From: a virus
Lineage: Duplodnaviria > Heunggongvirae > Uroviricota > Caudoviricetes
Virus record (IMG/VR): IMGVR_UViG_2875713109_000002
Strand: one strand, 5' to 3'
DNA length: 4,566 bases
In this document: positions 1 through 4,566 of the stretch, one piece after another
Layout of the letters: every line of letters begins with the position of its first letter
Position numbering within the stretch: position 1 is the stretch's first letter
The notes under the pieces: model-generated
What the model was told of the DNA's origin: nothing
Seen by the model: only the letters and a program-made list of their open reading frames with translations
The model's database searches: none
Position numbers and translations under genes: made by a program

Positions 1-60
1 AAATGAGGAAATTGGCCTGAAACAGGGCCAAAATCAGCCACGAAGAGACGATTTTGGGCT

Positions 61-76
61 GAAAATTGGAAAATTG
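61..76. repeat. Perfect tandem 8-mer GAAAATTG x2, with a related copy GAAATTGG at 8-15
   Basis: Read directly: GAAAATTG at 61-68 and again at 69-76. The surrounding segments 11-50 and 53-91 are an imperfect direct repeat (TTGGcCTGAAA... / TTGGgCTGAAA...; ...AGCCAC in both). Significance unknown. Confidence 0.3.
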
Positions 77-162
77 AGCCACAGGACGTCGATAAAGGAC
101 GGTTTGGGGCGTCATATCGGGAGCTGCGGACCACTTAATCGCAACTTCCCTAGAAGATACTT

Positions 163-188
163 ACACATTTTTCCTCTGAAAACTGTGT
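163..188. promoter_or_regulatory. Imperfect 10-bp inverted repeat upstream of the ATPase promoter (possible operator)
   Basis: ACACATTTTT (163-172) and AAAACTGTGT (179-188) are 9/10 complementary, with a 6-nt spacer. A second short palindrome, ACTGAA-TT-TTCAGT (248-261), abuts the TG of the extended -10. Confidence 0.2.
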
Positions 189-197
189 GTTACGTCA

Positions 198-270
198 TTG
201 ATGGATTGTGTTGGAATGGCTAATAATTTGGGTGATGTCATAGTTTTACTGAATTTTCAGTGATATAAAT
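198..270 (+). promoter_or_regulatory. Candidate sigma70 promoter region for the ATPase gene
   Basis: Two candidates read by eye: TTGATG (198-203), 18-nt spacer, AATAAT (222-227); and an extended -10, TGATATAAA (261-269). Both sit in the AT-rich leader upstream of the RBS AAGGA (326-330) and the ATG at 334/337. Not experimentally supported. Confidence 0.3.
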
Positions 271-333
271 CATGTAAAAATAAGGTGTTCTACGTAAGGT
301 TATTTTTCTATACACAGCTAGCATAAAGGATTA

Positions 334-1782
334 ATGATGTTTATTAAAAAACTGAAGATAGAAAATTTTAAAGGGTATCACGGGGAAGATAATGAGTTGG
401 AATTCAATATCCCTGATGGAGAAACGGAAGGTAGTGGACTTAATATATTTGTGGGTGAAAACAACGCCGGAAAATCCACTGTATTTGAAATTATAGATTT
501 TATAAAGGATGGAACCAAAAAGAACATTGAGGATCTTATATGCAAATCAGATCCGGCTAATATTGCTGAGAAGCTTTCAGCCGAGCTAACCTTCACTGGA
601 AACTTATCAGAAGTAATTGCCGCTCATGTACAAGCTAATAAAGTTGCAGCATTCACCTCGCATGTTTTTGAGGACGAGGGTGTTAATTATTTCAGAGTGA
701 AGAGGTGTAGTGAGGTAGGGGAGAAGAAAATATTATTTTGGAACGGAAATGAATTTGTTAACCCAAGTGGTATAGATGCCCCATTTAAGAAGTTTTATGA
801 TAATAACTTCATTTGGGCTGATACAAACCCAAGCAATGAAGCAAAGTTTGGCTCTACAACTATATGTGGTTCGCTTCTAAAAGAAATTGCTTTAGGCCAT
901 ATTGAAACGGATGAGTATAGAGCGTTTTCTGAGCAATACCATCGCGTATTCAATCACCCTGAATCAGAGTTGAGACAGAAAATATCATTAGTCGAAAATC
1001 AAGTTAGAGAGGTTTTCTCATCTCAATTTGGTATGGCAGATATTTCTTTCATTTTTGAAGAGTTGCAGGTAGAGAATTTCTTCAAAACTATTTCCATCAT
1101 GATTGATGATGGGGTGAATGTCCCAATGGGAGAAAAGGGGCATGGTATGCAAAGGGCACTAGCCCTATCATTACTTCAGGTGTACGCTGAGATAACGTGT
1201 AATGCGCATGGTGCGGGGATTAGTAAACCATTTTATCTTTTCATTGACGAACCTGAAATATGTCTTCATCCTTCAGGGCAGCAAAAGCTTTTAGAAGCTT
1301 TAATGATTATCTCCAAAAGTAGACAGGTTTTTGTTACAACGCACTCTCCTTTCCTTTTGTCCTCCCCTTACCTTAAAAATATCGGTCTGTTTGTTTTCAA
1401 AAAAGAGAATAATAAAAATGTTGTGGAAAGGGCTGATACTTCTCCATGGTTCCCTTGGTCTCCATCGTGGGTCGAGATTAATTTCAAAGCATACAATTTA
1501 GCAACCGTTGAATTGCATAATGAATTATATGGTTATTTGCAGGAGAAAAACTCCTGTCCAAGCGAAAAAACAATGGAGCAATGGCTAAATTCAAAGGGAA
1601 TTGCGTTTGATAAAGTATGGGTTAAAGAATTTAAAGGTGCGGCACAACCGCCAGCGGATACTACATTACAAACATTCATCCGTAATCATATACACCACCC
1701 AGAGAATGTTACAATGCAATCTCATCGCTATACACAACAAGAATTACTAACTTCAATCCAACAAATGGTTGGGCTTCTATAA
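334..1782 (+). CDS. ABC-type ATPase (AAA_15/AAA_21-like, OLD/GajA/PtuA/AriA clade) with uncharacterised C-terminal domain carrying a HEPN-like R-N-x3-H motif; candidate anti-phage defence protein
   Basis: 482-codon ORF with RBS AAGGA at 326-330 and tandem ATGs at 334 and 337; the second has the better spacing. Walker A GENNAGKST (aa 41-49, nt 454-480). Signature-like GEKGHGMQ (aa 266-273). Walker B FYLFIDEPE followed by LHP (aa 300-313, nt ~1231-1272). H-loop VFVTTHSP (aa 332-339). No Toprim-like E / DxD motifs after the ATPase core. C-terminal ~140 aa contain R450-N-H-I-H-H455 (nt 1681-1698). Codon usage is strongly AT-rich, unlike the neighbouring genes. Ends 7 nt before a terminator hairpin. 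Confidence 0.85.
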   Translation: MMFIKKLKIENFKGYHGEDNELEFNIPDGETEGSGLNIFVGENNAGKSTVFEIIDFIKDGTKKNIEDLICKSDPANIAEKLSAELTFTGNLSEVIAAHVQANKVAAFTSHVFEDEGVNYFRVKRCSEVGEKKILFWNGNEFVNPSGIDAPFKKFYDNNFIWADTNPSNEAKFGSTTICGSLLKEIALGHIETDEYRAFSEQYHRVFNHPESELRQKISLVENQVREVFSSQFGMADISFIFEELQVENFFKTISIMIDDGVNVPMGEKGHGMQRALALSLLQVYAEITCNAHGAGISKPFYLFIDEPEICLHPSGQQKLLEALMIISKSRQVFVTTHSPFLLSSPYLKNIGLFVFKKENNKNVVERADTSPWFPWSPSWVEINFKAYNLATVELHNELYGYLQEKNSCPSEKTMEQWLNSKGIAFDKVWVKEFKGAAQPPADTTLQTFIRNHIHHPENVTMQSHRYTQQELLTSIQQMVGLL

Positions 1783-1784
1783 AG

Positions 1785-1814
1785 AAAAAGGCGAGCCGTT
1801 TGGCTCGCCTTTTA
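1785..1814. terminator. Bidirectional rho-independent terminator shared by the convergent genes
   Basis: Perfect 8-bp GC-rich stem GGCGAGCC (1790-1797) / GGCTCGCC (1802-1809) with loop GTTT. Flanked by AAAAA (1785-1789) on the left and TTTT (1810-1813) on the right, so each strand's transcript ends in a U-run. It lies 7 nt after the ATPase stop and 8 nt after the stop of the minus-strand ORF. Confidence 0.7.
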
Positions 1815-1817
1815 ATA

Positions 1818-2009
1818 TTAATTTAATAACTTGCGCTTTTTAGATAATAGTACGCTTAAAGCATATTCAAATCCGTGTTGCGCCTCTAGACGGCATAGGG
1901 TGATATTACAGATCCCCAACTCCTTACACAGCGCCTTTCGATTAATTACTTCCGCCGCGCCTGATACATAGACTTGACCAGCGCCGGGGATATTGATTGA
2001 AACTTTCAT
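1818..2009 (-). CDS. Small helix-turn-helix protein (63 aa), possibly a truncated or remodelled phage gene
   Basis: ATG at 2009 preceded by GAGGT with about 6-nt spacing. The segment KALCKELGICNITLCRLEAQ fits a classic helix-turn-helix pattern (E-L-G-I-x3-T-L-x-R-L), resembling AlpA/excisionase-like or small-terminase N-terminal DNA-binding domains. The last ~15 codons fall in AT-rich DNA, whereas the 5' two-thirds have host-like GC. Confidence 0.5.
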   Translation of the reverse strand: MKVSINIPGAGQVYVSGAAEVINRKALCKELGICNITLCRLEAQHGFEYALSVLLSKKRKLLN

Positions 2010-2101
2010 GTGTTACCTCAGTGTAAAAGTAAAAATGAATATAACCGGAAGAGATAATCCCCAGCCGATACCCAAAGGGCGCGACCGGGGGGCATTTTGC
2101 A

Positions 2102-3121
2102 TTACTTCAGCTTGACGTTCAGCGTGTAGTTCGGGCGCAGGTTCAGAGGGATGAAGCTCGCCTCCTGGTGAATGGTCACCATGCCGTAACGGTCAGTCAT
2201 TACTTTCTGGTAGAACGGGCTGATCTCGCCTTTCGCGGCGATGTCCTGATTACGGGAAGCCGGGCCGTGTACCAGTTTGAACGGGTTACGGTCAGCGCCG
2301 TTAAACTTAGGAACGAACAGGCCGGAACCTTCTTCGATTTCGTAGCGGTCATCGTCCGCCAGAATGAAAGTAATGTTGCCAATGCTGAAGGAGTCATAAC
2401 CCGCAGTGTTAACCGGGATCAGAGCGCCTTTTGCAGCTTCCGCCACTTTGTTGGTAATAAGGCTGGTTACTTCCGGGTGGCTCGCCAGTACGTCATACAG
2501 ATCCGGGGAGCAGAAGCAGAAGAAGCGGTCCAGATAGGAGCGGCTCGTGCCGTACTCTTTAACCAACATGCGGCGAATCTTCGCAAGCTGTGCATACACG
2601 TTAGCGCCTGCTGAACCGTCCAGGTTGAAACTCAGCGGATCGGCACCCATCGCCGCGCGAAAGTCGATATCACCGTCGTCAGTCTTAGCCGCTTTCGCTT
2701 CCTGTTTGAACAGGGCGCGGGCCAGCGTACTTTCAACCGTTTCCAGGTGATGGTTACGCATACGGATAGCTTTAGACGCGATCACTTCAGAAATAGCCGC
2801 AACCTGATCCGGGTTAGCCGGGCTGATCAGACCTTGCCAATCAGCGGTTTTTACGTCCGCTTCGGTGGCGTAGTGTGGGAGCTCCTGGTCACGCAACAGA
2901 GGCTTATCCATTTTGATGGAGTTAACTTCGGTGCCGTAGCGGGCTACCTGTTCCAGTTCAGAGACTTGAGTCTCTACGATGTCCAGAACTTGAGCGTTTG
3001 GAGTGGTGGAGTTAACACCGGAGAAGATACCCAGATCAGAGATCAGGTAATTACCCGCTGGCACTTGTTTAAGTGCCGCTACGGTGTCCAGCTTTTCAAA
3101 CTGTTTAAAATCAATAGCCAT
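2102..3121 (-). CDS. Phage major capsid protein, probably lambda gpE-like family
   Basis: 339-aa ORF. On the minus strand the upstream gene's TAA stop is followed by AAGGAAA and then ATG at 3121, a tight operon junction. Size matches gpE (~340 aa). The C-terminal stretch (TIHQEASFIPLNLRPNYTLNVKL) resembles the gpE C-terminus as I recall it. GC-rich codon usage. Family assignment is from memory, not a search. Confidence 0.6.
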   Translation of the reverse strand: MAIDFKQFEKLDTVAALKQVPAGNYLISDLGIFSGVNSTTPNAQVLDIVETQVSELEQVARYGTEVNSIKMDKPLLRDQELPHYATEADVKTADWQGLISPANPDQVAAISEVIASKAIRMRNHHLETVESTLARALFKQEAKAAKTDDGDIDFRAAMGADPLSFNLDGSAGANVYAQLAKIRRMLVKEYGTSRSYLDRFFCFCSPDLYDVLASHPEVTSLITNKVAEAAKGALIPVNTAGYDSFSIGNITFILADDDRYEIEEGSGLFVPKFNGADRNPFKLVHGPASRNQDIAAKGEISPFYQKVMTDRYGMVTIHQEASFIPLNLRPNYTLNVKLK

Positions 3122-3133
3122 TGTGTGATTTCC

Positions 3134-3241
3134 TTATGCTTTGAAGTAATCGGCGTTGATAGCCAGGCGAATATCACCGGAGGCTGTCAGCGCTTCCAGT
3201 GCGGCTTTTTTGCTCGCGGCGTCTTTAGCACGTAGGGCAAA
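3134..3241 (-). pseudogene. 3' remnant of the head gene preceding the capsid gene (scaffold or decoration protein C-terminus), truncated at a breakpoint
   Basis: The last ~35 codons of minus ORF 3134..3616 (FALRAKDAASKKAALEALTASGDIRLAINADYFKA) look protein-like and end in TAA just before the capsid RBS. Everything upstream in that frame is Cys/Ser/Arg-rich junk lying antisense to a well-formed + strand protein, and no ATG is present in the plausible part. Confidence 0.45.
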
Positions 3242-4385
3242 ATCGGTAACCAACCTTACAGAAAAGGATCTGTTTGACCTGATGCAACAAGGGAAGCTGT
3301 TCTCTAAGGACATCCTCCCGGAAGTGGCGAAACAGATGAAAGCCGCAGCTCGTAACGGCGGCGCTCTGGATAAGGCTATGAAGTCCAACCGGGCAAGTTG
3401 GCAGCGCCTGCAAACCAGTATGCAGAACGCTATGAATATCTTCTTTACTTCTGGCTTTGGTAACTCACTAACCAGCGCTTTCGACGCTATCAGCGCCGCT
3501 GTTAACGGCTCTGGTGGGGCCTTTGAGATGTTCGGGCATATCGCCGGGAAAATCGTTGAGGGTGCCACAGATGCGTTTACAGAGTTGCACGACACTGTGA
3601 TCCTGACCTTCCGCATTATTGAGTATTACGCCGCTAAGATGGGGATCACTGGTGAGCAGCTTAAATCCTGGGGAGAAATGGCAGCATACGCCGCCGGGGT
3701 GGCTCTGTTCGCTGGCTCTATCTGGAAGTTGGGCGGGGCCTTTAAATGGTTGTTGACCATGCTCAACCCGCTAACCAAATTGCTGGGGGTCATGAAAGGG
3801 ATCGCCGCTATTGGTGGCATTGAATCCGCTACAACTGGCGGATCTGGTGGGGAAGGTAAAGACAAGCCAAACAAACCGGGCCGGGGTCCGAAAGTTGGCA
3901 AGGTAGGCGGCGCGGCGGCTCTCTCTGGCGGTCCTGTTGGCTGGGGCATTGCGATCGGTTCGGTAGGTGGGGATTATGCCTGGGATAAAGTCATGGACGC
4001 TAACGACGCCATGTATGGACAGGACACCACCGCCGGAGGCAATCTGAAGAAAGATAGCCCGCTGGGTAAACTGTGGGATTTCATCCACAGCCCAGACCTT
4101 CCGACTAATCCAGACTTTGCCAAACCAACAGATAAAACAGGGTGGGTAAGCTCTTACTCCAATCCGGGTTATGTTCCTCCTGCGCCGACGATTACAGCGC
4201 CACAGCTTAAAGTTGATATGGCAGGTAATCCACTGATGACGCCGCCAGCGTGGCTAAACCAGCCGCTTAACGTGAACGTCAATGTGAAAGTGCAGGATGG
4301 GCAGGTTAGGGATCTGGTCCGCTCTGAAGTTGAGACCAACAACCAGCAGGCTTTCAACATGCTGATGCAGGGCGGGCCGAACTAA
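3156..4385 (+). CDS. Phage tail tape-measure-like protein, C-terminal fragment (N-terminally truncated; plausible coding from about 3243)
   Basis: 409-codon ORF. From about codon 30 the sequence is protein-like, with long hydrophobic Ala/Gly-rich segments (AAYAAGVALFAGSIWKLGGAFKWLL, LLGVMKGIAAIGGI) and a Gly-rich linker (TTGGSGGEGKDKPNKPGRGPKVGKVGG) typical of tape-measure proteins. The first ~28 codons (MIARRISPEAVSASS...) have antisense-type composition and overlap the head-gene remnant. No convincing RBS for the internal ATG at 3282. At ~380 aa it is much shorter than typical tape-measure proteins. Confidence 0.5.
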   Translation: MIARRISPEAVSASSAAFLLAASLARRAKSVTNLTEKDLFDLMQQGKLFSKDILPEVAKQMKAAARNGGALDKAMKSNRASWQRLQTSMQNAMNIFFTSGFGNSLTSAFDAISAAVNGSGGAFEMFGHIAGKIVEGATDAFTELHDTVILTFRIIEYYAAKMGITGEQLKSWGEMAAYAAGVALFAGSIWKLGGAFKWLLTMLNPLTKLLGVMKGIAAIGGIESATTGGSGGEGKDKPNKPGRGPKVGKVGGAAALSGGPVGWGIAIGSVGGDYAWDKVMDANDAMYGQDTTAGGNLKKDSPLGKLWDFIHSPDLPTNPDFAKPTDKTGWVSSYSNPGYVPPAPTITAPQLKVDMAGNPLMTPPAWLNQPLNVNVNVKVQDGQVRDLVRSEVETNNQQAFNMLMQGGPN

Positions 4386-4466
4386 CCGCCCATACAAAAA
4401 AGGCTCCCCTAGTGGGATAATGCCGATCAGTTAAGGATCAGTTGACCGATCCAGTGGCTGTGTAAG

Positions 4467-4501
4467 AATCCGGAAACGCTCACTCGTTTCCGGATTTTTT
4501 T
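4467..4501 (+). terminator. Strong rho-independent terminator after the tape-measure-like ORF
   Basis: Perfect 12-bp stem AATCCGGAAACG (4467-4478) / CGTTTCCGGATT (4485-4496) with loop CTCACT, running into a T-run through 4501. The opposite strand has no T-run, so it acts on the + strand only. Confidence 0.8.
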
Positions 4502-4566
4502 ATGCACATTGGACAGGCCCTTGATTTGGTATCCCGTTACGATTCTCTGCGTAACCCACTGACTTC

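Follow-up and report, generated by a model that had tools for sequence, protein, structure and literature searches.

Two truncated genes of opposite orientation, very probably joined by a single internal deletion in a satellite-like island

Defective prophages and islands of enterobacterial chromosomes decay by deletion and by insertion of IS elements. In lambda-type morphogenesis operons, the genes for the capsid and the tape-measure protein (TMP) lie on one strand. Among phage satellites, PICIs have as their defining components an integrase, a regulator, a primase-replicase, a capsid-morphogenesis gene and TerS, and tail genes are a "forbidden" component in the SatelliteFinder PICI model (PMC10085698). 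Capsid genes of the PF03864 family occur in 356 published PICIs (PMC13230959). So far, a TMP has been described only in the satellites termed EPIPs, and PLE11 has been proposed to have a TMP-like protein; TMP carriage has been called exceptional among satellites (PMC12822802).

The locus described here bears a scar that is, in itself, ordinary decay of a kind already known. As in other enterobacterial prophages and islands, the decay combines an internal, apparently illegitimate deletion of minimal overlap, which fused truncated genes, with later IS insertions and several independent deletion alleles at one locus; the one difference is that decay has here struck something other than an ordinary prophage. 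The window, meaning the whole stretch of 4,566 nucleotides that was analysed (IMG/VR record IMGVR_UViG_2875713109_000002), thus shows three independent lesions within about 4.5 kb, namely ISEc68, a 6-kb deletion and IS4 (Table 1). We are highly confident that a single internal deletion of 5,996 bp in a 13.6-kb satellite-like island explains the junction at which the remnants of two opposed genes meet.

Table 1. Features of the window, in order of position.
Feature	Position	Strand	Remarks
ISEc68 end (IS5-like)	1..149	.	target CTAG at 150-153; interrupts 452-aa integrase gene
Integrase 3ʹ remnant	150..223	+	last ~24 codons and stop of 452-aa tyrosine integrase
482-aa cargo gene, intact	334..1782	+	P2 Old-like AAA ATPase ("ATP-dependent nuclease")
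Bidirectional terminator hairpin	1786-1813		3ʹ of cargo gene
63-aa gene, conserved	1818..2009	-	after capsid gene in members where found
Major capsid protein gene, 339 aa, intact	2102..3121	-	Pfam Phage_cap_E
3ʹ stump of 123-aa gene	3134..3249	-	stop 3134-3136; codons 87-123 at 3137-3247; 2 nt of codon 86
Deletion junction	3248..3249	.	2-bp overlap AA common to both parental flanks; 5,996 bp gone
3ʹ stump of tape-measure gene	3249..4385	+	codons 334-711 at 3249-4382; stop 4383-4385
TMP terminator hairpin, left half	4396..4416	+	holds IS4 target duplication
IS4 left end	4417..4566	+	inserted in TMP terminator hairpin

At the scar itself, the ORF list holds two chimeric frames that overlap, one of 160 aa on the minus strand (3134..3616) and one of 409 aa on the plus strand (3156..4385). 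When the whole window is compared by megablast with 5,426 complete E. coli genomes, the matches break in two at this point: one group of genomes matches 147-3249 and another 3248-4435, and the two pieces are joined in 1 of the 5,426, strain PSS-07. The reference for the junction is the island of E. coli 90-1 (L002), which lies between rcnR and thiM and has an intact centre. Pairwise BLAST places window 147-3249 on L002 12001-15103, with 3 mismatches in 3,103, and window 3248-4417 on L002 21098-22267, with 1 mismatch in 1,170. Both flanks are therefore 99.9% identical to L002 on the same strand, the two matches are offset by 5,996 bp, and L002 15104-21099 is missing from the window. In a base-by-base view, identity to the left flank is perfect up to A3249 and identity to the right flank is perfect from A3248; on either side, it falls to random within one to two bases of 3248-3250, and the junction holds no inserted bases (filler). 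Searches by tblastn with the parental proteins place both stumps as the alignment does. Codon 86/87 of the 123-aa gene is joined to codon 333/334 of the TMP gene.

These endpoints agree closely with what an earlier note had read from the letters of the window. That note had two 5ʹ-truncated genes of opposite orientation meeting within a few bases and advised alignment to intact lambdoid prophages to locate the junction and the missing segments; L002, which is not lambdoid, supplies both. On the minus strand, it estimated about 35 authentic codons at 3134-3241, where codons 87-123 are now found at 3137-3247 with the stop at 3134-3136. On the plus strand, it placed protein-like sequence from about 3243, and authentic TMP codons begin at 3249. 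Its view that the other portion of each ORF is the antisense of the neighbouring gene is confirmed. The true immediate ancestor of the scarred copy is other than L002 as seen today, since IS911 sits in the integrase gene of strain 90-1.

The minus-strand stump is what is left of the 123-aa gene, namely its final 37 codons and a TAA stop codon that overlaps the Shine-Dalgarno region of the capsid gene. Intact, the gene occupies L002 14988-15359 (minus strand), directly upstream of the capsid gene. It stands immediately upstream of the E-type capsid gene in all relatives, and lambda D and E have the same order. Against Pfam PF02924 (HDPD), the 123-aa protein reaches 20.5-22.7 bits in three copies scored singly, below the cut-off of 29.1. 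Ten of 16 homologues match HDPD at E<=0.01 (best 3.5e-5), with alignments shown as full-length. By its position and this weak profile match, the 123-aa gene is likely a head gene. The protein has no match in PHROGs, NCBIfam or a PDB sequence search, its family profile, which is shallow, shows no similarity to lambda gpD in hhalign, and an AlphaFold2 model (pLDDT 42.7) is unusable.

The plus-strand stump derives from a protein of clearer identity. The parental TMP of 711 aa matches Pfam PF20155 (TMP_3) at 88 bits (cut-off 41; residues 200-396), TIGR02675 at 37.6 bits (cut-off 21.35; residues 277-355) and phrog_5255 at 1e-110, and the break falls inside the TMP_3/TIGR02675 domain. In the window copy, residues 1-333 are absent and positions 130-188 of 192 of the TMP_3 profile are left, at 18.1 bits against the cut-off of 41; the copy falls short of a complete TMP domain with an N-terminal half.

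Long ORFs on both strands across the site, together with a 367-aa CDS annotated by PGAP, could be taken for two complete genes that overlap naturally. This reading has practically no probability, however, given the sizes of the two families. The short-gene family yields 140 hits, with complete members of 121-127 aa among the 120 listed, whereas the window keeps codons 87-123 only; intact TMPs of the family measure 704-718 aa; and the surplus part of each ORF is the antisense of the neighbouring gene. By the earlier note, a complete short gene and a complete protein family starting at 3156 would have spoken against its reading, and the same family sizes show that neither is present. The PGAP product, called a "hypothetical protein", starts from ATG 3282 within the TMP stump. 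On look-up, no exact record of the 409-aa chimeric ORF was found, and the 367-aa version is present. The ORFs over 3134-4385 should accordingly not be annotated as genes, and what PGAP gives as a 367-aa product is a remnant of the TMP.

As an allele, the scar is real and inherited, and neither chance nor an assembly artefact. That PSS-07 alone among the complete genomes spans the junction might point to an assembly or scaffolding chimera, but the exact junction 32-mer is found in eight loci, comprising PSS-07 and seven further places in independent NCBI and ENA assemblies. These loci share an identical junction and differ in project, assembler, sample type and neighbouring lesions, which makes a chimera scarcely conceivable. 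The seven places come from an index in which the 367-aa product occurs in 127 assembly-collection blocks, the junction 32-mer being present in 7/7 of the places listed. Two carriers, L019 and L020, have the junction and no IS4 after the TMP stump; L020 additionally has IS1 beside the capsid gene, L023 has a shortened capsid gene and L024 has a cut integrase. Since the carriers of the junction differ in IS4 and in these other lesions, the deletion came first and the rest accumulated later. ISEc68 is not in PSS-07 and must therefore have struck the genome of the window later. The IS4 insertion is marked by a palindromic target duplication of 11 bp (CCCCTAGTGGG, 4406-4416).

Decay of the island is not confined to this allele. 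At least four other, different deletions or IS events affect it in other E. coli genomes, some of these deletions being IS-bounded, and the IS elements found across its copies are ISEc68, IS4, IS911, IS903B, IS1203 and IS1. The capsid gene is carried by 12 of the 5,426 complete E. coli genomes, three of which have an intact centre.

A comparison with the intact island suggests how the scar arose. That island has a leftward block (the 123-aa gene, the capsid gene and the 63-aa gene) and a rightward block (regulators, a RepO-like HTH protein, the 188-aa and 124-aa proteins and the 711-aa TMP), the two diverging from a non-coding iteron region of about 2 kb, and the deletion would have taken this central region and the 5ʹ portions of the genes on either side of it. 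Missing from the window relative to L002 are the 5ʹ parts of both genes, a 2,020-bp stretch without an annotated gene and six small plus-strand genes with regulatory or replication roles, one of which encodes the RepO-like HTH protein. The promoter region upstream of the capsid gene was lost with the deletion, and no promoter-like site was found near the junction. From the observed endpoints, we infer that the cause was illegitimate (non-homologous) recombination, because the joint has a 2-bp overlap, no filler and no IS.

Alternatively, the deletion might have been made by an IS or a site-specific recombinase, such as the 188-aa tyrosine recombinase or an IS that was present only transiently. 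The island is full of IS, some of its other deletions are bounded by them, and the small tyrosine recombinase that it encodes gives weak FimB/FimE-type invertase hits. However, neither parental endpoint has an IS sequence, an inverted-repeat end or a repeated recognition sequence, and AA alone is common to the two, so that we consider this origin highly unlikely. By our arithmetic, about 16% of joins made at random would show an overlap of at least 2 bp; the AA thus says little about mechanism and counts neither for nor against microhomology-mediated repair. Within about 3238-3250, where the earlier note advised a search for microhomology, the two flanks share the AA at 3248-3249. Several successive steps, such as two nested deletions, would have given an identical scar, and the molecular mechanism of a deletion is not readable from one scar.

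Following a single illegitimate deletion, the resulting element would be dead, as it would have no origin, no replication or regulatory genes and no promoter region for the capsid block. The two stumps and the orphaned capsid gene would presumably be non-functional, and the chimeric ORFs would be by-products of the join. The later lesions, namely IS4 within the terminator of the TMP gene, ISEc68 within the integrase gene of the window's genome and others in other carriers, would then have struck an allele that was already being inherited.

The earlier note had interpreted the junction as a head-gene remnant joined to an "inverted tape-measure fragment", by "deletion or inversion" in a decaying prophage. 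In the window, the capsid and TMP genes do lie on opposite strands, unlike those of lambda-type operons, which would suit an inversion with truncation that flipped the tape-measure fragment relative to the head genes. However, the parent and eight full-length relatives, which come from several genera and occupy at least four integration sites, all have divergent capsid (minus) and TMP (plus) blocks, and both flanks of the window align to L002 on the same strand. An inversion is thus very improbable. The nine full-length elements are L002, SCU-316 (L004), three Logan contigs (L006, L007 and L008), one locus of Pectobacterium odoriferum (L010) and three IMG/VR contigs (L011-L013), which carry the family without being proof of its packaging. 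Their capsids range from 90% down to 57% identity, and they differ in their recombinases and in their sites, which include the thiM riboswitch, a position beside a tRNA and one next to the trp leader. A further element, L005 (E. coli LR-29-1, tRNA-Gly), has the same layout, but its TMP position is taken by a 700-aa protein without a TMP domain. Divergence is the native arrangement in this conserved family of elements, and in none of the nine full-length elements does the TMP gene lie downstream on the capsid strand, as the inverted reading had assumed. What survives of that reading is the deletion and the decaying element; the inversion and the lambdoid prophage do not.

A lambdoid prophage as the parent is not supported, since the co-linear morphogenesis operon is absent both from the window and from the intact relatives. 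In a megablast search of window 2000-4450 against 50,697 phage records, only trivial hits of 37-55 nt were obtained, which leaves no lambdoid or other phage parent at the DNA level. At the protein level, the capsid is about 25% identical to the capsids of Pseudomonas myoviruses (Pakpunavirus, Otagovirus), and the TMP shares 28-37% identity with TMPs of the Vequintavirinae type (phiTE, PVP-SE1-like and Mydo-type myoviruses). The capsid protein also matches PF03864 (Phage_cap_E) at 55.6 bits (cut-off 22.9; residues 15-336 on profile positions 7-327/329) and phrog_29, "major head protein", at 6.7e-16. In BLASTP, the 124-aa protein shows no similarity to phiTE_227, the product of the gene upstream of the phiTE TMP gene.

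With lambda D-E, the element shares the Phage_cap_E capsid, an HDPD match below threshold and a tightly coupled order of a D-like then an E-like gene. It differs in having no detectable pairwise similarity to gpD or gpE, the family profiles compared by hhalign being shallow, and in having a TMP that, in contrast to lambda H, lies on the opposite strand and is of the Vequintavirinae type. Moreover, it is without the other lambda-like morphogenesis genes: no terminase, portal, protease, scaffold, sheath, tube, baseplate, lysis or other tail genes were found in the parent or its intact relatives.

The parent island is 13.6 kb long and encodes a 452-aa tyrosine integrase, an Old-like cargo protein, an E-like capsid, a D-like protein and a TMP. 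The cargo protein of the window matches the PADLOC Old profile at 7.6e-46 over profile positions 1-352 of 578 only, and its C-terminal 120 aa match none of the listed profiles; the 63-aa gene has no family match. The intact element of SCU-316 is bounded by sharp 70-nt direct repeats, 13,570 bp apart, of which the right one falls within the thiM TPP riboswitch. The rcnR/thiM site is occupied by the island in a minority of E. coli.

The closest known kind of element is the enterobacterial PICI, and the parent is best described as PICI-like and TMP-encoding rather than as an established PICI. It resembles EcCICFT073-type PICIs in size, in its site-specific integration flanked by direct repeats, in the terminal position of its integrase beside a defence-type cargo gene and in having a replication module of its own. 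EcCICFT073 likewise has a capsid-E-type gene beside a D-type gene (Phage_cap_E at 174 bits, HDPD at 63.5 bits). Unlike these PICIs, the parent encodes a 711-aa TMP and has its D-like gene ahead of the capsid gene, both on the other strand from the remaining genes; in hhalign, the family profiles, which are shallow, show no similarity to the EcCICFT073 capsid and decoration proteins. Of the components by which PICIs are recognized, the parent has an integrase with site-specific integration, of which the window keeps 24 integrase codons, and a capsid-E-type morphogenesis gene. Searches of Pfam, PHROGs and NCBIfam found no AlpA/Stl-type regulator, primase-replicase, TerS or Rpp in the parent, whose replication protein is RepO-like HTH, with iterons, in place of a primase-replicase. 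Nor is the parent free of tail genes, as PICIs are expected to be, since a TMP of 704-718 aa is a conserved core gene of the family.

EPIPs (Mycolicibacterium) and PLE11 (Vibrio cholerae), which have hosts unrelated to the parent's, can be likened to it by gene content: all are small, miss most tail genes and have a TMP or TMP-like gene, and EPIPs also carry a capsid gene. EPIPs differ in having TerS, head-tail adaptor, stopper and scaffold genes; in the parent, no such genes were detected.

The gap of about 2 kb between the divergent blocks is non-coding in 10/10 members. Member-specific iterons lie in it together with AT-rich blocks and conserved hairpins, and it looks like an origin and control region; a search of the parental gap against Rfam returned no family. 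A conserved ORF hidden in the gap was considered and rejected, as matches in all frames on both strands reflect DNA-level conservation only. An invertible segment, an idea taken from the conserved small FimB/E-like recombinase, was likewise rejected, since consistent inverted repeats were lacking and no block was inverted from one member to another. A free circular episome, suggested by the many contigs of 13.0-14.5 kb, was discarded because L006 and L008 have no terminal overlap. L006 starts and ends in the att repeat, and assembly breaks at that repeat likely explain contigs of this size.

Among GTDB representative genomes, the capsid protein as query gave no hit and a capsid alignment scan found one locus, that of Pectobacterium odoriferum, so the family is rare among species representatives. 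Neither the thiM/rcnR island nor integration of this element into a riboswitch was found in the literature. It is possible, although we hold it somewhat improbable as a whole, that the window is the dead copy of an undescribed satellite family of Enterobacteriaceae, of about 13.6 kb and PICI-like, which would uniquely carry its own TMP, would have an iteron origin in the conserved gap of about 2 kb and, in its E. coli/Enterobacter branch, would integrate into the thiM aptamer, replacing the native upstream region of the operon.

The scar is minor in itself, and its value lies in the undamaged parent to which it leads, a compact, conserved element that is bounded by 70 nt of the thiM riboswitch, has a capsid gene and a TMP gene and lacks all others for the tail or for packaging. 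This family and its attachment site in the riboswitch go beyond the finding of the scar and merit a separate look. If the satellite reading is true, current finders would reject the family, tail genes being "forbidden". Furthermore, should the parent prove to be a satellite, the few reports on satellite TMPs would be extended to Enterobacteriaceae, and integration into a riboswitch would be exemplified as well.

The intact element of E. coli SCU-316 (L004) spans 13,570 bp and is flanked at both ends by sharply defined copies of a 70-nt direct repeat. The repeat lies outside the window and corresponds to the 5ʹ portion of the TPP riboswitch aptamer of thiM. After integration, thiM is still preceded by an intact aptamer while everything upstream of that aptamer is replaced, and the native thiM upstream region is left at attL, where it faces the integrase. 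No description of the thiM TPP riboswitch as the integration site of this element turned up in literature searches. Among the matches listed in the homologue tables for the capsid and the 123-aa protein encoded directly upstream of it, many carrier contigs measure 13.0–14.5 kb. This size class does not argue for a free episome. One such contig from Logan (L006, 13,605 bp) has both of its ends within the att repeat; assembly breaks at the repeat therefore probably account for the size class.

Two of the genes kept in the window can be described further (see table). The 482-aa cargo protein matches the PADLOC Old profile (7.6e-46, profile positions 1–352 of 578), with further matches of AriA, GajA and PtuA type; its C-terminal ~120 aa matched none of the profiles listed. 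The cargo gene adjoins the integrase gene, a position that in satellites is a frequent place for defence genes. The 63-aa gene is present in nine of 10 relatives at identities as low as 41%, and its product gave no family match.

Features of the window and of related elements (TMP, tape-measure protein)
Feature	Location	Strand	Remark
Cargo gene, 482 aa, intact	window 334-1782	+	P2 Old-like ATPase part
63-aa gene	window 1818-2009	-	conserved directly downstream of capsid gene
ISEc68 (IS5-like) end	window 1-153		adjoins CTAG target
IS4	window 4396-4566 region		inside loop of TMP terminator hairpin; 11-bp palindromic target duplication CCCCTAGTGGG
IS4 of strain ECL27977	L003 13138-14650	opposite to window's
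70-nt direct repeats	L004 2661-2730 and 16231-16300		both ends of element
188-aa tyrosine recombinase	L002 (E. coli 90-1) 22305-22871	-	convergent with TMP gene
Conserved non-coding region	L002 15360-17379		between divergent capsid and TMP blocks; deleted in window
700-aa protein in TMP gene position	L005 18054-20156		tRNA-Gly site of E. coli LR-29-1

Insertion sequences lie at both ends of the window. Of the 452-aa integrase gene, ISEc68 spares just the final 24 codons; strain PSS-07, which carries the same deletion junction, is without the ISEc68 insertion, and the window therefore stems from the genome of another carrier. IS4 occupies the identical site, with the identical duplication, in ECL27977 and is missing from some deletion carriers. 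Additionally, the same island at the rcnR–thiM site has decayed by at least four further independent routes in other E. coli genomes (L003, L014, L015 and L016): an integrase stub fused to codon ~161 of the TMP gene, a deletion bordered by IS1203 that left TMP codons 380–711, capsid codons 179–339 fused to the end of the gene for the 188-aa protein, and the RepO-like gene fused to an IS4 remnant.

The 188-aa protein is a second recombinase, additional to the 452-aa integrase, with weak matches to Xer and to FimB/FimE-type invertases. It is conserved in L004, L008 and L010–L012. Members of the family are mosaics. Compared with L002, the Pectobacterium odoriferum element (L010) shows 93% identity in the 123-aa protein and 68% in the adjacent capsid, and an IMG/VR contig (L013) shows 91% in the 141-aa protein and 57% in the capsid. 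The related element of LR-29-1 has the same layout as the family, and its 700-aa protein has no TMP_3 or other Pfam match.

Non-coding stretches of 1.7–2.1 kb, equivalent to the region deleted in the window, lie in L004–L008 and L010–L013. The region contains no conserved ORF, Rfam match or invertible segment. It carries AT-rich blocks, iterons that differ from member to member and several conserved GC hairpins; in an alignment judged by eye, paired substitutions seem to be present in at least one of these hairpins. Conceivably the region might encode an RNA. It is probably an origin and control region.
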